NCBI GenBank assembly: GCA_001803795.1
Contig: MHEK01000059.1
Location: 1 to 42,147 of the forward strand
Direction of reading: 5' to 3'
DNA length: 42,147 nucleotides
Source: Nitrospirae bacterium RBG_16_64_22
GTDB lineage: Bacteria; Nitrospirota; RBG-16-64-22
Part shown: in pieces, positions 23,680-35,636 of the stretch
Layout of the letters: each line of letters starts with the position of its first letter
Numbering within the stretch: position 1 is the first letter of the stretch
Position numbers and translations under genes: made by a program
The notes under the pieces: model-generated
Databases searched by the model: none
The model's input: the letters and a program-made list of their open reading frames with translations, nothing else
What the model was told of the DNA's origin: nothing

Positions 23680-24612
23680 ATGACCCGGAACCGAGCAGGC
23701 ATGCGCCCTCTCGACAGACAGATCGTCTATTTCAACGGCCGATTCCTCCCCGCCGGCCGGGCCTGCCTTTCCATCTTCGACCGTGGAATTCTCTACGGGG
23801 ACGGGATCTTCGAGACCTTCCGAAGCTACGGCGGAAAGCTCTTTCGCGTCAGGGATCATCTCGGCCGCCTCGCCTCGTCGGCAAAGGCCGTTGGAATGGC
23901 CCTGCCGCTACCCGCCGAAAGGCTCCATGCCATCCTTTCAGAGTGCCTTCGGCGGAATCAGCTTCGAGACGCGACACTCCGGCTCACGATCACGAGGGGG
24001 AGCGGAACGCCGGGCGACCTCGCCCCTCGAACCGATCCGGCCCACACCGTCTTCATCACGGCCAAGCCGATTTCTCCGCCCGGCCCCTCCCAGGTCCGCC
24101 AAGGGGTCGCCGCGGTCATAATCAGGCGATTCCGGACCGACCGCCAGGGGGTCCCCCCCCGGAGCAAGACGACGAGCCGGCTCCTGGGGATCCTGGCCCG
24201 CCGGGAGGCGAAGGACGCCGGCGCCTTCGAGGGAATACTCCTGAACGACAAGGGAGAGATTACGGAAGGAACGACGACGAACATATTCTGGGTCCGGAAG
24301 GGAATGCTCTACACACCGCCTTTCCGCGCGGGCATCCTTCCGGGAATCACGCGGGCCGTTACGCTGGAGGCCGCGCGGCGGATCGGCCTCCCCGTCCGCC
24401 TGGAAACCGGGAGGCCCGCGCGGCTTTACCGCGCCGACGAGGTCTTTCTCACCGGGACCTCGATCGAAGTGCTCTCCGTCTCCGGTGTGGACGGCCGCCG
24501 AATCGGCACGGGGCGCCCCGGTCCTGTCACCCGGAGACTCCAGGAGGCCTTCCGTCAGATCGTCGAAACCGAGACTCATTCCAAGCTGGCCCCCCCGGAG
24601 AAGCGACGATGA
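23680..24612 (+). CDS. class IV (fold type IV) PLP aminotransferase: branched-chain/D-amino-acid aminotransferase or aminodeoxychorismate lyase type
   Basis: 310 aa. IFDRGILYGDGIFETFRSYGG, KTTSRL, EGTTTNIFWV and GILPGITR motifs. An alternative start is at M8 (23701). Confidence 0.8.
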   Translation: MTRNRAGMRPLDRQIVYFNGRFLPAGRACLSIFDRGILYGDGIFETFRSYGGKLFRVRDHLGRLASSAKAVGMALPLPAERLHAILSECLRRNQLRDATLRLTITRGSGTPGDLAPRTDPAHTVFITAKPISPPGPSQVRQGVAAVIIRRFRTDRQGVPPRSKTTSRLLGILARREAKDAGAFEGILLNDKGEITEGTTTNIFWVRKGMLYTPPFRAGILPGITRAVTLEAARRIGLPVRLETGRPARLYRADEVFLTGTSIEVLSVSGVDGRRIGTGRPGPVTRRLQEAFRQIVETETHSKLAPPEKRR

Positions 24613-25289: not shown

Positions 25290-25318
25290 TTGACACCTCC
25301 CCTCTTCCAAGGTATAGT
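25290..25318 (+). promoter_or_regulatory. near-consensus sigma70 promoter of the chemosensory locus
   Basis: TTGACA 25290-25295, 17-nt spacer, TATAGT 25313-25318. About 100 nt of leader precede ATG 25422. Confidence 0.55.
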
Positions 25319-25421: not shown

Positions 25422-26834
25422 ATGGCCGGCGAAACGATCCTCGCCATCGACGACAGCCCCACCGTCCGAAAACTCATGGAGATGATCCTCTCCACCGAAG
25501 GGTACCGAATCATCACGGCGGCCGACGGGATGGAAGGGATCGCCAAGGCCAAGGTGGAGGAGCCGGCTGTCATTCTCGTCGACTTCGTCATGCCCAAAAT
25601 GAACGGGTTCCAGGTCTGCAAGGCGATCAAGGAGACCGCGAACCTGCAGGACACGCCGATCATCCTGGTCACGTCGAAGGGCGAAACGGTCGGCTCAAAA
25701 TTCGTCAACTTGTTGGGCATTACGGAGTACTTCACTAAGCCGTTTCAGCCGGAAGACCTCCTCGAAAGGATCCGCGAGGTGATCGACCGGTCGCCCCGGC
25801 CGCAGGCCCTGGCGGCCGCCGAGACGCTCGTCGCCGCAACCGAGACGGTCATTGAGGCCGAACCGGTCGAGGTCGCCGAAACCGTCGAAGAAACCCCGCC
25901 GGCCCCTTCCCCCGAAGCGCCCGCCCTTCCCCCTATCCCGGGACTGGAAGAGCGCGTCGAAGCCCTCGTGCGGGCCACTCTCCAGAGGTTCTTCAAGGAG
26001 GAGTTCCCGTCGATCGTCCGCTCCGTCCTCCCGGCGGGCCTCGGCTCATCGTCCGAGGCGGGCGCACAATCGGGCAAGAACGTTTCCCTCTCCGGGGATC
26101 TCTCCCTCTTCCCCCTGCCCGACATTCTCCAGCTCATTTCGATCCAGAAGAGGACCGGGTGCCTCTGGATCGGTTCCGAAGAGAACCATGCGGAGGCTTT
26201 CTTCGAGGGTGGACTCGTCGTCTTCGCCGCCCTCGAGCACAAGCCCCCGGAGGATCTCATCGGCCGTCTTCTCATGGAATCGTCCAAGATCAACGCGGCC
26301 CAGCTCCGCCACGCTCTCGCCGATTCGGAGAAGTCCGGCGTCCCGCTGGGCCAACTGCTCGTCCGCGGAAGCCTGATCACGGCGGCGGAACTCCTCAGCG
26401 TCGTCCGGATCCAGAGCCAGAGGACCGTCTATCGGGCGCTCGGCTGGAAATCGGGACGGTTCGCCTTCACCCGAGAGCCCCTGCCTGCGGCTTTCGCGGG
26501 GACCGGCCTCTCCCTCAGCGTAGACGACCTGATTCTCGAAGGCGTCCGCCGGATCGACGAGTGGCAGGTCATCTCCCAGAAACTTCCGAGCCTGAACATC
26601 ATCCTCACCCGCCTGATCTCGAACGCGGAAGAGATGGGAAAGATCAATCTGAACCCGTCCGAGCTCAAGGTCCTGCAACTCATCGACGGCAAGCGGGACA
26701 TCAAGGCAATTATCCGCGACAGCGGCATGGGCGACTTCGAGGTCTGCAAGATCCTTTACGTCCTGATGTCCACGAACCTTCTGAAAAAAGTCGGAGAAAC
26801 CGAGCGCTCACGCAGGACTCCCCAGTTTCTTTGA
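25422..26834 (+). CDS. response regulator: N-terminal receiver + Pro/Ala/Glu linker + C-terminal PATAN (DUF4388) domain
   Basis: 470 aa. REC motifs ILAIDDS...LVDFVMP...VTSKG...TKPF. The PATAN/DUF4388 signature is LSGDLSLFPLPDILQLISIQKRTGCLWI ... GQLLV. AAGGA is upstream of the ATG. Confidence 0.8.
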   Translation: MAGETILAIDDSPTVRKLMEMILSTEGYRIITAADGMEGIAKAKVEEPAVILVDFVMPKMNGFQVCKAIKETANLQDTPIILVTSKGETVGSKFVNLLGITEYFTKPFQPEDLLERIREVIDRSPRPQALAAAETLVAATETVIEAEPVEVAETVEETPPAPSPEAPALPPIPGLEERVEALVRATLQRFFKEEFPSIVRSVLPAGLGSSSEAGAQSGKNVSLSGDLSLFPLPDILQLISIQKRTGCLWIGSEENHAEAFFEGGLVVFAALEHKPPEDLIGRLLMESSKINAAQLRHALADSEKSGVPLGQLLVRGSLITAAELLSVVRIQSQRTVYRALGWKSGRFAFTREPLPAAFAGTGLSLSVDDLILEGVRRIDEWQVISQKLPSLNIILTRLISNAEEMGKINLNPSELKVLQLIDGKRDIKAIIRDSGMGDFEVCKILYVLMSTNLLKKVGETERSRRTPQFL

Positions 26835-26976: not shown

Positions 26977-27339
26977 ATGGCCAATATCTTGATTGCCGAC
27001 GACAGTTATTCCGAGCTCCAAATCTTCCAGGCCACCCTGGAGCCCACCGGTCACCGGCTCATCACCGTCATGGACGGCGAAGCCGCCGAGGAGAAGGTCA
27101 AGGCCGAGCCGATCAACCTCATCATCCTCGACGTCATCATGCCGAAGAAGAACGGGTTCCAGGTCTGCCGGACGCTCAAGACGGACGAAAAGTACAAGCA
27201 CATCCCGATCATCATGTGCACGCAGAAAGACCAGGACAGCGACAAGTTCTGGGGGATGAAGCAGGGCGCGGACGAGTACCTCACGAAACCCTTCAACCCC
27301 GCCGACCTTGTCCGCCTGGTCAAGAAGTACCTTTCCTGA
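26977..27339 (+). CDS. cheY: single-domain CheY-like response regulator (PilH/PixH-like)
   Basis: 120 aa from an internal ATG with GGAGGA upstream. ILIADDS, ILDVIMP, MCTQK and TKPF. Confidence 0.85.
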   Translation: MANILIADDSYSELQIFQATLEPTGHRLITVMDGEAAEEKVKAEPINLIILDVIMPKKNGFQVCRTLKTDEKYKHIPIIMCTQKDQDSDKFWGMKQGADEYLTKPFNPADLVRLVKKYLS

Positions 27340-27365: not shown

Positions 27366-28235
27366 ATGATATCGAAGTCGATGAAGAGAACGCGAAACCC
27401 GGGAGCCGCCGCGCTCGCCGGGCTGTGCTTGTGGCTTCTTTCGCCGGCGGCGCCGGGCCGGGCCGCTGAAGAGATCGTCTGGACGGGGGAGCGTTCGATC
27501 TACTACGGCGGCCTCCAGGACGCCGCCAACGAGTTCACGCGGCTGACCAAGATCAAAGTGACGGCAATCCCGGGAGGGTGCGGGGCCGCCTCCGCCGGCG
27601 TCAAGCAAGGCAAGGTCGACGTGGGCGGCCTATGCTGCGCCATCAAGGAAGAGGAACTCTCCAAGTTCGGCTTCAAGCACTACCCCATCGGAATCGAGGG
27701 CCTTGCCATCGTCGTCCACCCCTCCAACCCGGTCAAGTCTCTCACCCAACAGCAGGTCAGGGACATTCTCACCGGCAAGATCACGAACTGGAGGGAAGTC
27801 GGCGAGAAGGACCGGCCGATCAAGGTCGTCGCCCGCCCGCATTGCACGGACCGGGAAGGGAACTGGAAGCAGATCGTTCCCGACAAGAAGCTCCTGGCCA
27901 AGGGGCGGATAGACGTCAAGGAAGACCAGGACGTCCTTCTGGCCGTGAAGGACCACGAGAACTCCATCGGCATCATCGGGCTGAACATGGTCAATCCCCG
28001 CTTCGCGCGGGCGATTGCGATCGACGGAATCGTGCCAGGGCGCCCGTCGCTCATCGACGGCACCTATCCCTGGAAGATCCAGAACTCCCTCATCCTGGCT
28101 TCGAACAGCTCCGCCGCCGCGAAGAAATTCGTCGACTTCATTCTAGGCGACGGGAGAAAGCTCCTCCACAAGGACCTGGTCTTCCTCGACGAGGTGAAGC
28201 CCGCCTCTGCCAAGAAGACCGGAAAGGGAAAGTAG
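27366..28235 (+). CDS. exported PstS-family (PBP_like_2) periplasmic substrate-binding protein, orphan
   Basis: Signal peptide AAALAGLCLWLLSPAAPGRAA. Hallmark LTQQQVRDILTGKITNWREVG of PstS-like proteins. GGAGGGG lies 7 nt before ATG 27366 (alternative ATG 27345). No ABC permease or ATPase genes are nearby. Confidence 0.7.
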   Translation: MISKSMKRTRNPGAAALAGLCLWLLSPAAPGRAAEEIVWTGERSIYYGGLQDAANEFTRLTKIKVTAIPGGCGAASAGVKQGKVDVGGLCCAIKEEELSKFGFKHYPIGIEGLAIVVHPSNPVKSLTQQQVRDILTGKITNWREVGEKDRPIKVVARPHCTDREGNWKQIVPDKKLLAKGRIDVKEDQDVLLAVKDHENSIGIIGLNMVNPRFARAIAIDGIVPGRPSLIDGTYPWKIQNSLILASNSSAAAKKFVDFILGDGRKLLHKDLVFLDEVKPASAKKTGKGK

Positions 28236-28245
28236 GCTCCGCGCG

Positions 28246-28728
28246 ATGGCCGAGTCGACATTCGTTCAGGACGCTCCCGCCGCCGAAGAGGCCTCTCTGG
28301 GCTTCTGCACTTTTCAGATCGGCGGAGAGTTCTACGGCCTGGACATTGTCCTCGTCCAGGAGGTGATCCGTTCGCAGAAGGTCTTCCCCGTACCGACGAC
28401 GCCCCCGTACGTTCTCGGCGTCATTAATCTTCGGGGAACCATCATCCCTATAGTCGACATCAAGCGCGTTCTCATGCAGACCCCCTGGCGGGAAACCCCC
28501 GACACGCGCCTTCTGATCCTTCAGCAGGATCAGACCCTTGTCGGATGGGCCGTCGACGCCGTCGGAGACATCGCGTGGCTGCCCGTCTCGCGCGTCGAGC
28601 CCTTTCAGACCCGCCGTGACGAGCCGGGGTTCAAGTACGTCGATCGGATCGGAAAGGTGTCGGAACAGACGGCGCTCGCCCTCGTTGACGGGCCTCGCCT
28701 GATTGCTGATCTTCGGATTCGAGGATAG
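28246..28728 (+). CDS. cheW: CheW-like coupling protein
   Basis: 160 aa. FQIGGEFYGLDIVLVQEVI...VLGVINLRGTIIPIVD. Confidence 0.85.
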   Translation: MAESTFVQDAPAAEEASLGFCTFQIGGEFYGLDIVLVQEVIRSQKVFPVPTTPPYVLGVINLRGTIIPIVDIKRVLMQTPWRETPDTRLLILQQDQTLVGWAVDAVGDIAWLPVSRVEPFQTRRDEPGFKYVDRIGKVSEQTALALVDGPRLIADLRIRG

Positions 28729-28809: not shown

Positions 28810-30672
28810 ATGGCTCAGACCACGAAGGAACGCATCATTCCGGCCCAGCAGTCGGCCGGGCTCGGCATCGGGGCGAAGATCGGGATCATCATCGCCCTCC
28901 TGGCCGTCCTCATCGGCATCGCGACAGCCGTATACCTCTACGCCAAGATGAGCGGGACCCTCACGGGCGAGATCGAGAAGCGCGGCCGGGCCCTGGCCTC
29001 GGGACTCGCGACGAGCGCCACGAACCCGATCCTGACCAACTCGAAGAGCGTCCTCAAAACGATCGCCAATGACATCCTCAAAGAGGAAGCCGTCGACTAC
29101 GTTGTGATCCTGAACGACGAAGGCAAGTCTCTCTTCAACTCCTTTGAGGGCGAGAAGATCCCGGATGAAGTCGCCAACGCCGCGAAGACCGCAAACAAGA
29201 CCGCCGTCGACAGACAGAACCTCAAACTGAGGGGAATCGAAATTCTCAACATCAGCGCCCCGGCCGTGGAAGGGAAAGTCGGCTCTGTCCACATCGGCAT
29301 GTCGACAGCCGGAATCGCGCTCCTCGTACGCAACACGATCTTCGTGATACTTACCGTGTTCACCTTCGTTCTCATCGGCGGGTGGGCCATCGCGTATGTC
29401 GTCTCCAACCGCATCATCGTCGCCCCGATCCAGGACGTCATGTCCGTCGCCCGGTCGGTCGGACAGGGAGACCTGTCCCGCGAGGTCAAGGTAACCAGCC
29501 AGGACGAGATCGGTCAGCTCGGCGCCACGGTCAACGAGACGGTCAAGCGGCTGCGCCACCTGGTCCAAACGGAGGACGAGCGGAACCAGATGCAGCGCCA
29601 GGTCATGGACCTCCTCTCGATCGTCTCCGCGGCCGCGGAAGGAGACCTGACCAAGCAGGCCGTCGTCACGGCCGACGCCCTCGGATCGCTGGCCGACGCC
29701 TTCAACCTGATGGTCGACGGTCTGACGACCCTGATCAACCAAGTGAAGGACGCCTCTCTCGAGATCGACGGCGCCTCCCGGAAGGTCCTGTCCGCCGCCG
29801 ACGGTATCCGCCGCAGCGCGGAGGAGCAGACCGTCCACATCGGCCAGACGGCCCGCACCGTCAACGCGATGAGCCAGTCTATGACGCAGATGGCCCAGAG
29901 CGCCGAGTCCGCGGCCCAGTCATCCGCCGTGGCCACCGATACGGCGCTCAAGGGCGAAAATTCCGTGGCCGAAACGATCCGCGGCATGCACCGGATCCGA
30001 AGCACCGTTCAAACGACGTCCAAGAAGGTCAAGAGCCTCGGCGAACGGTCGATGGAAATCGGCGCCATCATCGAAGTGATCAACGACATCGCCACGCAGA
30101 CGAACCTCCTGGCGTTGAATGCCGCCATCGAGGCCGCCAGGGCCGGCGAACACGGCAAGGGATTCGCCGTCGTCGCGGACGAAGTGCGGAAACTGGCCGA
30201 ACGATCCGCCAAAGCAACGAAGGACATCGCCAACCTCATCAAGGGAATCCAGGTCGAGACGAACGAGGTGGTCACTGCCATGGAAGAAGGGACGCGGGAG
30301 GTGGAGGAAGGAACCCGCCTTGCCGACCAGGCCGGATCCGCCCTCAAGGAGATCGAGACGGTGGTCCGCCGAACGGCCCAATCCGTCACCGAGATCTCCC
30401 AGGCCGCCCGCCTTCAAGCGAAATCCACCGAAGAGGTCGTCCGAACCATGGAGGGAATGTCCACGGCGACGCGTCAGGCGGTCGAAAACGTCCGCGGTGC
30501 CTCCGAGACCATCCGCGGTCTGGCCGAGCTATCAGCCCGTCTCGTCTCGTCAATCGGTCGGTTCAGGGTCAAGGAGAAGAGAGCCGAGCCCGCCGGCGTG
30601 TCTGCCTCTTCCGCCCGGCGGCCCGCGCTTCAGGAAGAAGAGATCGACCTGGGGTTTTTGGAAACGAAATAA
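28810..30672 (+). CDS. methyl-accepting chemotaxis protein (2 TM, ~150-aa periplasmic domain, HAMP, MA domain)
   Basis: 620 aa. GGAGGAGG RBS. Highly conserved hairpin tip [47 protein letters not shown]. Confidence 0.9.
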
Positions 30673-30764: not shown

Positions 30765-33281
30765 ATGGCTGGAAAGTTTGACAAATCGGCCTTGATCGAG
30801 TTCTTCCTGATCGAGGCCGAAGATCACATCCAGAACCTCACGAACGGCCTGCTCGCAATCGAGAAGGCGCCGGAGAACCGGGACGTCCTCGACGAGCTGT
30901 TCCGGACGGCCCATACGCTGAAGGGCTCCGCGGCCATGATGGGCTACAGCGTCGTGAGCGAGATCGCCCACCGCATGGAGGACGCGCTGAGCCAGGTCCG
31001 CTCGGGCGAGCGTACCGCCGACACCAAGATCGTCAACTTCGCGTTAGAGACCCTCGACTCGATCAAGCAGGTCATCCAGGACATCACACAGCGAAAAGAA
31101 GAAGACCCGCGCCTCGCGGGCCGGGTCAACGCGAGGTTCCAGGAGTTTTTCCACGGCGGTCCGCCGGCCGAGCCCGTCCCGGTCCCGTCCGCGGCGCCTC
31201 CGCCCCCTTCCGCCGCATCCGTCTCATTGCCTCCCAAGGCGCCCCCCGCCCCATCCGCTGTTCCGCCCGAGACGGCGCCTTCCGCACCGCCTCTCACCCT
31301 GAAGACCTCCATCGACGAAGCCAAGAAGGAGGGCGTCGTCGAAAAGCGCGAGTGGGGAAAGCGGGCAACGGACGTCTCTGAGATCGAGAAGCAGGTCATC
31401 CGCGTCAACATCAACCAGCTTAACAACCTGATGAATCTGGTCGGCGAGCTCGTCATCAAGCGGAACCATCTCGAGCGCCAACTCCACTTCGTCCAGGCCG
31501 TCAAGGAACAGCTTTCTTTCAGCCAGGCGCGTCTTCTCAAGACTGTCCGGGGCTTCGAGGAGAAGTACGAGTTCTCCCTCCCCGCCGCCGCGCCGGCTCC
31601 GGCGGCCAAGCCGGAATTGGGTTCGTTCACCGGCGACTTCTTCGACATGGAGTTCGACCGTTACGACGATTTCAACCTCCTCTCTCGCCAACTCGTCGAG
31701 ATCACGAACGACCTCAACGAGGTCATGAACGAATTCAACTCCTTCTTCGACGGGTTCGACGAGGAGACGTCCCACATCTCGATGATCACGAGCCGCCTGC
31801 AGGAAGAGATCACGGCGGCCCGCATGGTCGAGCTCGACCGGCTCTTCCTCCGGTTCTCGAGGCCCGTCCGGGACCTGGCCCAGGCCGAAGGAAAGGCCGT
31901 CTCCATCATCATCGCCGGCGGCGAAACGAAGATCGACAAAACAGTCTTCGAGATGATCTCCGACCCCCTCATGCACCTCGTCCGCAACGCGGTCTCCCAC
32001 GGGATCGAGCCCCGCGAGGAACGGATCCGCCGGGGCAAGGAGCCGACCGGCACGGCCATTCTTCGGGCCCGCCACGAGGGGAACTCGATCATCCTCGAGG
32101 TCGAGGACGACGGGCGCGGGATCGATCCGGAGCTTCTGCGCACGGAGGCCGTGCGCCGTGGATTCCTGAGCCCGGCCGCCGCCAAGGAGCTCTCCGATTC
32201 CGAGGCGATCAACCTCATCTTCCTTCCGGGCTTCTCGACGCGCCGTGAGGTCACCGAGATCTCCGGCCGCGGCGTCGGCATGGACGTCGTGAACACCGAT
32301 ATCGCCAAGGTCAACGGACGGATCGAGGTCCAGACCGAGCTGGGCGTGGGAACCAAGTTCAGCATCAAGCTCCCGCTCACGCTCGCGATCTCCCAGGCGC
32401 TCATCGTCCGGTGCGGCGGCAGCGAGTTCGCCATCCCCCTAGCCACCGTCGAGGAGACGACCCGCTTCACGCTCCGCGACATCCAGACGGTCGCCGGCGA
32501 GGAGGTCGTCAACCTGCGCGGCAGGTTCCTCCCCCTCATCCGGCTCGAGAATCTCTTCGGAATGCAGCCCCTTCAGCCCCCCGACCGGTACACAAAATAC
32601 CCCTCCCTGATTCTCGGAGTCCTCGAGAAGCGTGTCGGCCTGATGGTCGAGGAGATCGTCGGCCGGGAGGACATCGTCGTCAAGGGGATGGGAGAGTTCT
32701 TCCGCGACGTCCGGATCTTCTCCGGGGCGTCCGTCTCCGGCGAAGGAACGGTCCGGCTCATCATCGACTCCTTCAACCTCGTCGGACAACAGGGAATCGC
32801 CGAGAAGGCGAAGGCCACGTTCATCAAGGGTGAATCCGCCGCGGCCGCTCCCGAAGCCGTGGCGCCGGCCGGCGCGATCGCTCTCGCCGAGGAGGCCCCC
32901 TCCGGGCCTCCCTCGGTCCTCGTAGTCGACGACTCGATCAGCATCCGGAAGTACGTCAGCCACGTCCTCGAGCGCGTCGGCTTCAAGGTCGAGGTCGCCG
33001 TCCACGGGCTCGAAGCGCTGGAAAAGATGTCCGGTCGGAAGTTCAACCTCGTCATCACGGACCTCGAAATGCCCGTCATGCACGGATACGAGCTGATCGC
33101 CGAGCTCAAACGGTCCCCGAAGACGGCCAGGCTTCCCATCGTCGTCCTCACGTCGCGGGCCGGCGAGAAGCACCGCCAGAAGGCCCTGGAGATGGGCGCG
33201 CAGGACTACATCGTCAAGCCGTTCGACGAACAGACGCTCATCGACATCACACGGCGGCTCACGCAGACCGTCGCGGCCTGA
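30765..33281 (+). CDS. cheA: hybrid chemotaxis histidine kinase CheA-REC (Hpt, extended dimerisation region, HATPase, CheW-like, C-terminal receiver)
   Basis: 838 aa. Hpt FRTAHTLKGSAA. N/G boxes HLVRNAVSHGIE, DDGRGID, GRGVGMDVV. CheW-like region. C-terminal VLVVDDS...ITDLEMP...LTSR...VKPF. Confidence 0.9.
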   Translation: MAGKFDKSALIEFFLIEAEDHIQNLTNGLLAIEKAPENRDVLDELFRTAHTLKGSAAMMGYSVVSEIAHRMEDALSQVRSGERTADTKIVNFALETLDSIKQVIQDITQRKEEDPRLAGRVNARFQEFFHGGPPAEPVPVPSAAPPPPSAASVSLPPKAPPAPSAVPPETAPSAPPLTLKTSIDEAKKEGVVEKREWGKRATDVSEIEKQVIRVNINQLNNLMNLVGELVIKRNHLERQLHFVQAVKEQLSFSQARLLKTVRGFEEKYEFSLPAAAPAPAAKPELGSFTGDFFDMEFDRYDDFNLLSRQLVEITNDLNEVMNEFNSFFDGFDEETSHISMITSRLQEEITAARMVELDRLFLRFSRPVRDLAQAEGKAVSIIIAGGETKIDKTVFEMISDPLMHLVRNAVSHGIEPREERIRRGKEPTGTAILRARHEGNSIILEVEDDGRGIDPELLRTEAVRRGFLSPAAAKELSDSEAINLIFLPGFSTRREVTEISGRGVGMDVVNTDIAKVNGRIEVQTELGVGTKFSIKLPLTLAISQALIVRCGGSEFAIPLATVEETTRFTLRDIQTVAGEEVVNLRGRFLPLIRLENLFGMQPLQPPDRYTKYPSLILGVLEKRVGLMVEEIVGREDIVVKGMGEFFRDVRIFSGASVSGEGTVRLIIDSFNLVGQQGIAEKAKATFIKGESAAAAPEAVAPAGAIALAEEAPSGPPSVLVVDDSISIRKYVSHVLERVGFKVEVAVHGLEALEKMSGRKFNLVITDLEMPVMHGYELIAELKRSPKTARLPIVVLTSRAGEKHRQKALEMGAQDYIVKPFDEQTLIDITRRLTQTVAA

Positions 33282-33315: not shown

Positions 33316-33777
33316 ATGCCCGAGACATCCTCATCCGGCCCCGGACGCCTTGTCCTCTTCAATCTCGACGCCCAGCATTTCGGCTTCCGGATCGACAACC
33401 TGATCGAGATCGGGACCGTGGGGGCCGTTCGCCCCGCGTCCGATCTTCCCGGCTACGTTTCCGGAATCACGCTGTCGCGAGGGCGCGAAGTGGCGATTCT
33501 CGACCTCCGCTCCATCCTCGGCCTGCCGGCGCGCCGCCTTTCCCCATCCACGCCTCTCATCGTCATGCGCATCGGTGCCCAAGCCCTCGGGATCGCCGTG
33601 GACGCCGTTTCCAATATCCACACCGCTCCCGGAACGTGGCACCCGTTCCCAGCGGGCGCCGTGCCCGAAGACCGCAACCCGTATACGGCCGTCACGCGAA
33701 TCGACGACGACCTCCTTTTGATCCTGGATGAGCAGATGCTCCTGCCCATCGCCCGCGCCGTCAAAAAAGCCGCATGA
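33316..33777 (+). CDS. cheW: CheW-like coupling protein
   Basis: 153 aa. LVLFNLDAQHFGFRIDNLIEI...VSGITLSRGREVAILDL. Confidence 0.8.
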   Translation: MPETSSSGPGRLVLFNLDAQHFGFRIDNLIEIGTVGAVRPASDLPGYVSGITLSRGREVAILDLRSILGLPARRLSPSTPLIVMRIGAQALGIAVDAVSNIHTAPGTWHPFPAGAVPEDRNPYTAVTRIDDDLLLILDEQMLLPIARAVKKAA

Positions 33778-34235
33778 AAACTCAAACCTTCCCGGGCATC
33801 GAACCCGTACTCACGTTCAGGGTCGGCCCCCGCTTTCTCGGAATCCCGATCTCCAAGATCCTCGAAATCCTTCCGACTCCCATGCCGACACCCGTCCCGC
33901 TCGCCTTCGCCCATGTCGAGGGAATCGTGGAATACCGGAAGGCCCTCATCCCCGTCTATAACCTGTGCCGCCGCCTCTCCGTGCCATCCGACCCGTCGAT
34001 TTCGCCACACCTGATCGTGATCCGGGACGGAGACGCCTTGTTTGGCGTGACGGTGGACGAAATCGGAAAAATCATCTCGCAGCCCGCGCCCGCGGATCTG
34101 CCCGCGGACCGGTCGGTCCACGGACTGCCGCCCGGGCTCCTCCAGTTCGCCGCGGACGACAGCGGAAGCGTTGTCCCCGTTATCCTGCCGCAGGCATTGC
34201 TTGCGGCCCGGAACACCATTCGAATGGAAGCCTAA
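33774..34235 (+). CDS. cheW: CheW-like coupling protein (divergent)
   Basis: 153 aa. ATGA overlap with the preceding cheW. LTFRVGPRFLGIPISKILEI...VEGIVEYRKALIPVYNL. Confidence 0.75.
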   Translation: MKTQTFPGIEPVLTFRVGPRFLGIPISKILEILPTPMPTPVPLAFAHVEGIVEYRKALIPVYNLCRRLSVPSDPSISPHLIVIRDGDALFGVTVDEIGKIISQPAPADLPADRSVHGLPPGLLQFAADDSGSVVPVILPQALLAARNTIRMEA

Positions 34236-34259: not shown

Positions 34260-35636
34260 ATGGGAGGGATCATGAAACCGAAACTCCTCTTGGCGGATGA
34301 CAGCATCACCATCCAGAAAGTGGTGGAACTGATATTCTCGAACGAAAACTTCGAGATCATCACCGTCAACAATGGGGCCGACGCCCTCGCGAAAGCGAAG
34401 GCCGAGCGCCCCGATATCGTCCTGGCCGACATCTACATGCCAAAGCTGGATGGATACGAACTTTGCCAGGAGATGAAGAAGGATCCCGATGTCGCCGGCA
34501 CTCCCGTCATTCTTCTCGTCGGGGCGTTCGAGAGCTTTGACGAAAGCCGCAGCGCCGCCGTCGGGGCGACCGGACACATCACAAAGCCGTTCGAATCGCA
34601 GGAGCTCGTCGGGAAGGTGCGCGAGACGATCGAAGCCGCGGCGGCGGCCCGATCCGCCAAGGAGGCTCCCCGCCCTTCCGAACCCGCGGCCGCCGAGGAC
34701 CAGTGGACCGTGATCGACATCACATCGGGGGCCCGTCCGCTTCCGGCACCCCAAGCCCCCGAGGAGGAGGCCGACCTATGGAAGGACGTCTCGCTCATCG
34801 GAGAAACCCCCGCGGCTGAATTCTACCCGGAGGAAAAGGCCGCCCCCCGCCCGCCGGCCTCCGAACCTCAAGGCGAGGTATTCGAGATCTCCGTCGAGGA
34901 AAAAGCCGCCCCGGCCGTCGAGGCGCCGCCCCAGGCGCAGCCGGCCGCCCACACGACCCTTCACGGAACGCCCGTCACGGTCTATGAAGACGCCCGCGAA
35001 GAAAAAGCCGAGACCCCCGAGGTCCGCCCCCCGATCGAGCTTTCCGCCTCGGAACAGCCCTTCGAGCTCCAGTCGTTCGAGAGTCTCGACGAGGCCCATC
35101 TCCTCGGCGCCGAATTCGGCGTTCCGCCCCGGATCGAGCCCGCGGCCGTCCCCCCGCCCAAGGCCGGCGAAGAGAAGATCGAGAAGCTGCAGACAGCCGA
35201 GATGTACGAGTTCCTCGCCCCGGAGGAAATTCTCACCGAAGAGTCGATCGAGATGGTTCCGTCCGCCGTCGAAGAACCTTCTCTCCCAGAGAAACCCCCG
35301 ATCGCGGCGCCTTCCGCGGCCGCGCCGATGGTCGATCTGGATGTCACCCTCGAAGCGATTCCCGTCCCTCCGCCTCCCGCGGAAGAAGAGTTCGCGGAGG
35401 TTGTCATTCCAGAGGAACTCCCTCCACCGCCCCAGGCCCAGGCGGCCGCCGTCCCGTCGGGGGAGGAACTCGCGGCTCTGATCGAGCCGATGCTTCGCCG
35501 GATCGTGGAGGAACTCCTGCCGAACATCTCTCGGGAGACCCTGGACCGTGTCGCGTGGGAAGTGGTCCCAGACCTCGCCGAGGTCCTCATTTCGAAGGAG
35601 ATTCAGAACCTCAAGCAGGGAATGTCGAACAACTAG
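34260..35636 (+). CDS. response regulator: receiver + long acidic Pro/Ala/Glu-rich region + short conserved C-terminal helical module
   Basis: 458 aa. REC motifs LLADDS...LADIYMP...LVGAF...TKPF. The tail ends LRRIVEELLPNISRETLDRVAWEVVPDLAEVLISKEIQNLK. The start may be ATG 34272 (MKPKLL...). Confidence 0.75.
   Translation: MGGIMKPKLLLADDSITIQKVVELIFSNENFEIITVNNGADALAKAKAERPDIVLADIYMPKLDGYELCQEMKKDPDVAGTPVILLVGAFESFDESRSAAVGATGHITKPFESQELVGKVRETIEAAAAARSAKEAPRPSEPAAAEDQWTVIDITSGARPLPAPQAPEEEADLWKDVSLIGETPAAEFYPEEKAAPRPPASEPQGEVFEISVEEKAAPAVEAPPQAQPAAHTTLHGTPVTVYEDAREEKAETPEVRPPIELSASEQPFELQSFESLDEAHLLGAEFGVPPRIEPAAVPPPKAGEEKIEKLQTAEMYEFLAPEEILTEESIEMVPSAVEEPSLPEKPPIAAPSAAAPMVDLDVTLEAIPVPPPPAEEEFAEVVIPEELPPPPQAQAAAVPSGEELAALIEPMLRRIVEELLPNISRETLDRVAWEVVPDLAEVLISKEIQNLKQGMSNN

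Follow-up and report, generated by a model that had tools for sequence, protein, structure and literature searches.

A PstS-fold periplasmic binding protein with a predicted cysteine-lined cleft is encoded inside a chemosensory gene cluster of a Nitrospirota bacterium

In the present study, a gene for a secreted binding protein with the fold of the phosphate-binding protein PstS was analysed at its place within a chemosensory (che) gene cluster of Nitrospirae bacterium RBG_16_64_22. The window, i.e. the whole stretch of 42,147 nucleotides (nt) under study, is contig MHEK01000059.1 (contig C59 of the organism's own genome, G000, which comprises 118 contigs and is 89% complete), and all coordinates given without a contig or locus name are window positions (Table 1). 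The cluster runs on the plus strand in the order receiver (REC)-DUF4388 regulator, CheY, periplasmic binding protein (hereafter the PBP), CheW, methyl-accepting chemotaxis protein (MCP), CheA-REC hybrid kinase, two further CheW proteins, a receiver with a long tail and a DUF1571 protein. This arrangement of a PATAN-type regulator, CheY, CheW, MCP and CheA-REC hybrid fits a Pix/Pil (Tfp-type) chemosensory system; in the window, the REC domain lies before the PATAN domain, and between CheY and CheW the PBP gene has been inserted. As the initial annotation of this DNA had recognized, the gene thus lies between cheY and cheW and ahead of the MCP gene, with 26 nt separating the cheY stop (27339) from the PBP start and 10 nt separating the PBP stop from the cheW start (28246). 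The PBP gene begins with ATG, preceded by a GGAGGGG stretch, and the CheY-like receiver before it shows 66-98% identity in related loci. A candidate promoter approximately 100 nt upstream of the first che-cluster gene is the sole such site between positions 24600 and 37000, for which shuffled sequences gave a mean of 1.1, and no strong plus-strand terminator was found inside the che cluster.

Table 1. Positions of the genes and features of the che cluster and of the embedded PBP gene in the window
Feature	Position	Strand	Details
Putative sigma-70-like promoter ahead of first cluster gene	25290..25318	+	TTGACA-17-TATAGT, 11/12 matches, consensus match only
Response regulator, REC + DUF4388 (PATAN)	25422..26834	+	Pfam Response_reg 84.6 bits, DUF4388 103.6 bits
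Single-domain CheY-like receiver, directly 5' of PBP gene	26977..27339	+	Pfam Response_reg 89.3 bits
PBP gene, secreted PBP_like_2 protein with Cys4-His cleft	27366..28235	+	289 amino acids, without internal stops
Predicted Sec-type signal peptide, residues 1-34	27366..27467	+	Read from sequence: KRTR, hydrophobic run, GRA/AEE (slash, cleavage site)
E42-R43-S44 on the Ser-Thr-Ser loop of PBP-1, replacing the Ser-Thr/Asp-Thr N-terminal phosphate loop	27489..27497	+	MAFFT alignment
C72 at ligand Ser41 of PBP-1	27579..27581	+	HMM alignment, codon checked
C90-C91: C90 at ligand Ser59 (selectivity position), C91 replacing conserved Arg60	27633..27638	+	HMM alignment, codons checked
R157-P-H159-C160-T161-D162-R163 replacing R-x-D-G-S-G-T of PstS	27834..27854	+	HMM alignment, codons checked
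CheW	28246..28728	+	Pfam CheW 99.5 bits
MCP (transmembrane segment TM1, small periplasmic domain, TM2, HAMP, signalling domain)	28810..30672	+	Pfam MCPsignal 166.4 bits, HAMP 61.7 bits
Predicted MCP periplasmic domain, approximately residues 45-170, single Cache/PAS-like	28942..29319	+	AlphaFold2 on 8 orthologues, pLDDT 76.9
CheA-REC hybrid kinase	30765..33281	+	Pfam Hpt, H-kinase_dim, HATPase_c, CheW, Response_reg
Two more CheW genes	33316-33777, 33774-34235	+	Pfam CheW 72.5 and 72.6 bits
Response regulator, long low-complexity tail	34260..35636	+	Pfam Response_reg 81.7 bits

The PBP matches the Pfam family PBP_like_2 at 97.1 bits (cut-off 27) and falls below the NCBIfam cut-offs for PstS (TIGR02136, 113.1 against 206.6; TIGR00975, 17.5 against 205; NF008171, 11.3 against 339). 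It had been described as a PstS-type secreted protein by virtue of a signal peptide and the motif LTQQQVRDILTGKITNWREVG; the former is predicted and the latter is present, but the LTQQQV...NW motif is a general signature of PBP_like_2 and not specific to the subfamily, with G137 and W142 invariant even when true PstS proteins are included. The motifs GGCGAASAG, GGLCCAIKEE and RPHCTDREGN were all confirmed, whereas the count of four cysteines in total has to be corrected to five, namely C21 in the predicted signal peptide and C72, C90, C91 and C160 in the mature part. In the AlphaFold2 model (mean predicted local distance difference test score, pLDDT, 90.9 on a 44-sequence alignment), the signal-peptide region includes a low-pLDDT helix at residues 12-24. 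The top Foldseek matches of this model were all PstS proteins, the best being the closed, phosphate-bound PBP-1 of Clostridium perfringens (4q8r and 4gd5; TM-score by target 0.87 and 0.86, root-mean-square deviation 2.4-2.6 A), and the TM-score by target was only 0.62 against the open form from Borrelia burgdorferi. PBP-1 is also the closest solved structure, with 24% identity to the PBP and a hidden Markov model (HMM) E-value of 2e-30.

The replacement of the phosphate-binding residues is the central observation of the present study. In PBP-1, the phosphate ligands are given as Ser11, Thr12, Ser13, Ser41, Ser59, Arg125, Ser129, Gly130 and Thr131, and Ser59 is described as taking the place of the Asp that forms the low-barrier hydrogen bond in other PstS proteins (PMC5381212). 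These positions were mapped by HMM alignment of the orthologue profile to 4q8r (numbering as in PMC5381212), the N-terminal loop being taken from a MAFFT alignment with canonical PstS proteins. In the same order, the nine positions are E, R, S, C, C, R, T, D and R in the PBP. Two are identical (Arg125 to R157 and Ser13 to S44), one is conservative (Ser129 to T161) and six are replaced, two of them by cysteine. The structural comparison with PstS proposed at the outset places the protein closest to phosphate-bound forms, the alignments leave R157 and S44 as the only identical ligands, and the suggestion that the ligand may not be phosphate is supported. C72 and C90 fall exactly on phosphate-ligand serines, and C91, H159 and C160 are sequence neighbours of ligands; the 4q8r equivalences are Asp127 to H159, Gly128 to C160, Gly130 to D162 and Thr131 to R163. 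Family columns were counted in 159 members carrying C-C-C-H-C at these five positions and in 191 non-family homologues. Columns 42-44 read S/[DT]/T in the non-family homologues and A/H/F (109, 124 and 109 of 159, respectively) or E/R/S in the four-cysteine family, and columns 90 and 91 of the non-family homologues are Ser (155/191) and Arg (173/191). Cationic residues are kept in the family, i.e. R157 in 155, R163 in 145 and K161 in 130 of the 159 members, with His (124) or Arg (28) at position 43. In the model, C72 is placed on lobe I, C160 on lobe II and the vicinal CC pair at the hinge end of a strand. Judged from these alignments, the phosphate pocket is replaced by a thiol-rich, still cationic cleft (C72, C90, C91, C160 and H159, with R43, R157 and R163), and because Arg, Lys and His residues have been retained or added, an anionic or thiophilic ligand is favoured.

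This cleft is a stable property of a protein family. A word-indexed search returned approximately 20 close relatives (51-91% identity, 224-589 bits; Nitrospirota-type sources where named), followed by a gap in score, the next matches being ordinary PstS-like proteins at 113 bits or less. C72, C90, C91, H159 and C160 are invariant in 19/19 full-length orthologues (49-91% identity), as are R43, D85, R157, D162 and R163; the Cys4-His pattern is therefore not due to chance. Among 50%-identity representatives, 8429 matches at E<=0.001 were obtained by exhaustive search, and the best 150 of them include about two dozen more distant carriers of the CC and HC motifs. The Cys4-His site is kept in 28/28 diverse members of 24-56% identity, which had been chosen for these two motifs so that only C72 was free of selection. 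All 350 fetched homologues of 150-420 amino acids were then aligned to the family profile: C-C-C-H-C is present in 159 and C-C-C-M-C in 2, the main alternative is the PstS pattern Ser-Ser-Arg-x-x, and only a handful are mixed. This nearly all-or-none distribution indicates that the five site residues come and go together. A profile search in which 8000 candidates were scored put at least 722 protein clusters in the family at E<=1e-40; members with a name belong to Nitrospirota and Gammaproteobacteria and are annotated as "substrate-binding domain-containing protein" or, automatically, as phosphate-binding. In the ESM Atlas, all matches were PBP_like_2 clusters bearing generic names. As separate observations, one che-linked PBP gene (L013:3032-3789, CAKKRA010000064) is spread over two frames, covering query residues 28-171 and 175-276, by a frameshift or an assembly error, and P0020 and P0021 from ENA assemblies appear similarly frame-shifted. 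A different PBP_like_2 branch (family f7; L085:18188-19099 in G172 and L095:5884-6882 in G199) adjoins MCP genes in che clusters; it has cysteine at only two site positions (the equivalents of 42 and 90), retains the Arg91 and Ser-Gly equivalents, and may represent another variant of the binding site that has been coupled to chemoreceptors.

The transporter question was addressed within the organism's own genome, which holds five PBP_like_2 matches, on contigs C33, C30 and C79, in the window and on contig C97. A complete pstS-pstC-pstA-pstB set lies in a row on contig C33 (18599-24422); its pstC and pstA (C33:19637-23550) are of unusual length, with open frames of 765 and 539 amino acids in which the permease domain occupies the C-terminal part. 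Contig C30 carries a second binding protein, probably of the tungstate (tup-like) type as read from its motif, and the match on contig C79 is weak and falls on a LysR-like gene. Both transporter-type genes, i.e. pstS on C33 and the tup-like gene on C30, sit with their own permease and ATPase. The initial annotation had noted no ATP-binding cassette (ABC) permease or ATPase beside the PBP gene, and this holds for the whole contig: none of the 31 ABC ATPase matches of the genome lies on it, and no pstC-like permease was found there either. It had also named a sign by which a displaced transporter component could be recognized, an intact phosphate site together with a pstCAB operon lacking pstS; the site is not intact, and the pstSCAB set has its own pstS. 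In a genome of this completeness, a cognate transporter may still lie outside the window's contig. The remaining match is a paralogue (C97:24626-25546) with 37% identity to the PBP and the same C, CC and HC residues. It is followed, in an apparent operon (C97:21768-25546; L027:3769-7547, minus strand), by a dCache_3-HAMP-HisKA-HATPase kinase and a REC-GGDEF regulator. Therefore, the same organism appears to feed this kind of sensor both into the che pathway and into cyclic di-GMP (c-di-GMP) signalling. The search covered two other genomes of the genus, G006 and G016, and both copies are present in each.

The gene neighbourhood was compared across genomes in three sets. A pattern search, with one genome per species, gave nine loci from groundwater Nitrospirota metagenome-assembled genomes, and the PBP gene adjoins che genes in 9/9, so that linkage to che genes is not a peculiarity of the window. 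CheY lies directly upstream in 7/9, and CheW and an MCP follow in the five loci whose contig continues. In two loci (L011 and L012), the PBP gene is directly 5' of the MCP gene with no intervening CheW and CheA-REC is encoded on the other strand, showing that the adjacency of PBP and MCP survives rearrangement of the cluster. For the second set, the family profile was searched against 401 genomes of the phylum, and the best 40 matches outside the organism's own genome were examined with approximately 6 kb on each side. The CC and HC motifs are present in 40/40 of these loci, and the downstream gene is on the same strand in 38/38 callable loci, mostly 0-90 nt away (L058, L063 and L097 were left out of this count and are included in the motif check and the tree). 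Among 37 downstream genes (L013 being excluded here and from the tree), Pfam families indicate mainly histidine kinases: HATPase_c 26, HisKA 24, HAMP 16, dCache_3 10, dCache_1 9, CHASE4 8, sCache_3_2 7, HisKA_2 3, GGDEF 2, MCPsignal 2 and CheW 2, and LuxQ-periplasm matched 3/37. A third set, from a closer alignment of the gammaproteobacterial-type branch, comprised 80 metagenome loci, mostly from marine sediments; 78 (all except L129 and L174) gave a PBP open reading frame (ORF), all with the motifs. GGDEF is present in 54/72 of their downstream neighbours, e.g. HAMP-GGDEF proteins of approximately 525 amino acids and GGDEF-EAL proteins. Upstream genes in the sediment clade are of the housekeeping type (ThiF 15/58, Hydantoinase_B 11/58), 58 of the 66 upstream ORFs having been scanned after setting aside one duplicate, five short ORFs, the 249-aa ORF of L140 and the 1147-aa ORF of L159. 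Transporter families are missing from the 25 commonest Pfam families, both for the 37 downstream and for the 58 upstream neighbours, and no arsenic genes were seen adjoining the loci examined. Three loci of one Nitrospirota lineage (L068, L070 and L074) share a unit of PBP, dCache kinase and sigma-54 regulator, behind which genes for a conserved beta-propeller protein (360 amino acids) and a MacB-like FtsX permease are found; L068 (2865-12491, G013) has in addition a 570-aa BPD_transp_1 permease and an ABC_tran/AAA_assoc_C ATPase before the PBP gene.

A maximum-likelihood tree was built from 53 proteins by quick search, with SH-aLRT support only and true PstS proteins as outgroup; in this tree, the nine che-linked proteins including that of the window form one clade (SH-aLRT 99) nested among kinase-linked members. 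The tree labels "HK" and "other" derive from single-sequence phmmer matches, which under-call kinases; by Pfam, L080, L092 and L096 are HisKA_2 kinases. Because the che clade is nested in this way, the simplest reading is one recruitment of a kinase-associated sensor protein into the che cluster. Thus, the PBP was rightly seen as an orphan within its operon but is not an isolated oddity: it represents the che-linked branch of a large signalling-only family with an invariant Cys4-His cleft, whose members are mostly paired with kinases or diguanylate cyclases.

The presumed partner is the MCP encoded two genes downstream. Its periplasmic domain gives a weak match to sCache_3_2 (20.1 bits, below the cut-off of 28.4), its model, which is of moderate confidence, resembles the sensor domains of WalK, KinD, CitA and LuxQ in Foldseek, and many of its residues are invariant across eight orthologues. 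The organism's genome contains three MCP genes in all and two PilT genes above cut-off; CheR matches lie only on contigs C20, C57 and C46, and no flagellin was found in the available 89% of the genome. The presence of PilT, the lack of flagellin and the off-contig CheR fit, without proving, a pilus-related or other non-flagellar output.

Herein, we propose that the PBP is a secreted, signalling-only binding protein of the PstS fold that docks on the single-Cache domain of the MCP and reports thiophilic or redox-active species rather than phosphate, a reading that on balance appears probable to us, if only modestly so. The phosphate site has been replaced and the neighbours are receptors of three transmembrane classes instead of transporters; the PBP therefore most likely feeds a signal other than phosphate into the chemosensory pathway. 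The protein would close around, or react with, a thiophilic or redox-active periplasmic species, for which sulfur anions (e.g. thiosulfate, sulfide or polysulfide), metalloids (e.g. As(III) or Sb(III)) and soft metal ions are candidates. The ligand-bound, metal-bound or oxidized state would then constitute the signal. In that state, the PBP might dock on the small periplasmic domain of the MCP, as the conserved adjacency of the two genes suggests, and docking would modulate the CheA-REC and REC-PATAN/CheY outputs of the Pix/Pil-like system.

Several observations weigh against this proposal. One of the 40 Nitrospirota loci, L068, has genes for an ABC permease and ATPase immediately 5' of the PBP gene, and in L070 a short ATPase fragment is found at the contig start, approximately 5.6 kb from the PBP on the downstream side. 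The non-signalling neighbours, i.e. the upstream genes of the sediment clade and the beta-propeller and FtsX genes of the three loci mentioned above, gave no clue to the ligand. Exactly four cysteines in all, an even number, are present in 83/159 family members, a pattern also typical of disulfide-bonded secreted proteins. Up to six matches at E<=1e-20 occur per genome, the four-cysteine motif being confirmed for two paralogues each in G000, G006 and G016, and a large number of paralogues would argue against a rare specialized ligand such as arsenite. Finally, the sensor domain of the MCP shows no sequence similarity to that of the paralogue's kinase or to those of the 37 partners, except two MCP orthologues, and therefore one docking mode cannot be assumed throughout the family.

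Other explanations of the same cleft have to be weighed against a ligand-responsive sensor. The cleft cysteines might act as a thiol-disulfide switch without any small ligand, e.g. with one disulfide in lobe I and one across the cleft, and signal the redox state of the periplasm, or oxidants in it, to the MCP. Such a pure switch stays under consideration because the cysteines are even in number and a CC pair lies at the hinge; C72 and C160 on opposite lobes, neighbouring His, Arg and Lys residues that would lower the thiol pKa, and the origin of the family from gradient habitats (groundwater and marine sediment) are also consistent with it. However, the retention of R157 and R163 leaves a pocket that still looks anion-holding, and no matches to DsbA, DsbB or VKOR were found in the genome at its 89% completeness, from which the thiols may stay reduced instead of being routinely oxidized. 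We therefore regard such a switch as unlikely. The Cys4-His residues might alternatively bind a metal or cofactor (Zn, Fe or an Fe-S cluster) permanently, as a structural element, the PBP being a constitutive receptor subunit or binding its signal elsewhere on the surface. Cys4 and Cys3His are classic metal sites, and a negative metal-thiolate centre would suit the surrounding Arg and Lys residues. Despite the Tat-like (twin-arginine translocation) RRxFL signals seen in a few members (9/159), such signals are not commoner than in ordinary PstS relatives (19/191), and the signal peptide of the PBP itself has no RR-x-F-L motif; a cytoplasm-assembled cofactor thus cannot be general to the family, and Tat export was discarded as a clue to a pre-assembled one. 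Moreover, the Cys4-His site occupies exactly the ligand cleft of the Venus-flytrap fold, and we consider a purely structural centre rather improbable.

Two further explanations would leave the protein closer to its transporter relatives. The PBP might serve an ABC transporter encoded elsewhere and signal to the MCP as a second job, as in PstS-CtpL and MBP-Tar, which is how most known chemoreceptor-linked substrate-binding proteins (SBPs) are described to work (PMC8050422). The transporter genes directly 5' of the family member in L068 would favour this explanation, but above 70 bits its permease lacks relatives in the organism's own genome and in the other loci examined, and its ATPase gave only generic matches, so that the L068 pair was rejected as a trace of a hidden transporter partner. 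Taken with the lack of transporter families among the frequent neighbours and with the permease and ATPase that each transporter-type binding protein of the genome already has beside it, this makes a second job very unlikely. That the protein is an ordinary phosphate-binding PstS paralogue reporting phosphate to the MCP is suggested by the PBP_like_2 fold, by the retained phosphate-binding Arg and by relatives automatically annotated as "phosphate transport system substrate-binding protein". Six of nine ligands are replaced, however, with Cys at the selectivity position, and the protein lies far under both PstS model cut-offs, within a clade scoring 224-589 bits against at most 113 outside it; phosphate sensing is in our opinion scarcely credible.

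The proposed sensor of thiophilic or redox-active species can be placed beside known systems. Most SBPs acting on chemoreceptors are described as encoded with transporters, the named exceptions being basB and cosB of Halobacterium salinarum, whereas SBPs acting on kinases are encoded with signalling genes (PMC8050422). In the same account, the PstS-CtpL pair of Pseudomonas aeruginosa resembles the present proposal in that a PBP_like_2 protein activates an MCP which does not bind the ligand itself; it differs in that PstS is a true transporter component, encoded with pstCAB and binding inorganic phosphate at 9 nM, and in that CtpL has an HBM domain (PMC8050422). The window system has instead a Cys4-His site, no transporter partner, a gene in the che operon and a single-Cache MCP. 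In BasB-BasT and CosB-CosT, the binding-protein gene is directly 5' of the transducer gene, as in L011 and L012; these systems are archaeal, belong to other SBP families (Peripla_BP_6 for BasB), recognize amino acids or quaternary amines and are not described within a Pix/Pil-like operon (PMC8050422). An SBP gene directly before a transducer gene thus has precedents, and of the wiring of a binding protein into a che operon, which the initial annotation had not recognized as described, it is the location within a Pix/Pil-like operon that still appears to be new. In another system, arsenite is reported to be sensed by AioX, a binding protein of the phosph(on)ate type, which forms a Cys-As link with it and in turn activates the kinase AioS (PMC5908839). 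Here, too, a phosph(on)ate-type scaffold has been turned into a signalling-only sensor through a cleft cysteine and is encoded beside a membrane receptor; the differences are the Phosphonate-bd family (PF12974), the single ligand cysteine (Cys106) and the histidine-kinase partner (PMC5908839). By analogy, AioX is the closest mechanistic precedent for the PBP. In the LuxPQ mechanism, the SBP LuxP is paired with the Cache/PAS-like periplasmic domain of LuxQ. This pair and similar SBP-kinase pairs (PMC8050422) share with the present system a dedicated SBP and a Cache/PAS-like periplasmic partner domain, although LuxP-LuxQ involves another SBP family, another ligand (AI-2) and another output. C. 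perfringens PBP-1 is alike in its fold and differs in its low identity and in its complete set of phosphate ligands. Almost all of 13 solved PBP_like_2 proteins are described as binding phosphate, two of them also arsenate and tungstate (PMC10443332). A cysteine-lined PstS-like sensor was not found described in the literature, nor was a PBP_like_2 gene within a che operon, although subscription journals or supplementary tables may contain such a description. In other words, indirect activation of receptors by SBPs is already known, and the cysteine-lined PBP_like_2 sensor and its placement in a Pix/Pil-like operon appear undescribed.

The pattern C-x17-CC-x67-HC may accordingly mark an unrecognized, widespread family of thiol-based periplasmic sensors that serves as an interchangeable plug-in input for the three major classes of transmembrane signalling proteins, i.e. 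chemoreceptors, histidine kinases and diguanylate cyclases, and that senses reduced sulfur, thiophilic metals or metalloids, or redox state in redox-gradient habitats; we put this broader hypothesis forward with some hesitation. A phosphate-binding fold would here have been turned into a cysteine-lined sensor and wired to chemoreceptors, kinases and c-di-GMP enzymes in bacteria of groundwater and sediment. The identity of the ligand would correct hundreds of automatic "phosphate transport" annotations, and it would reveal what these mostly uncultured organisms navigate by and, with it, a new chemistry for periplasmic sensing.

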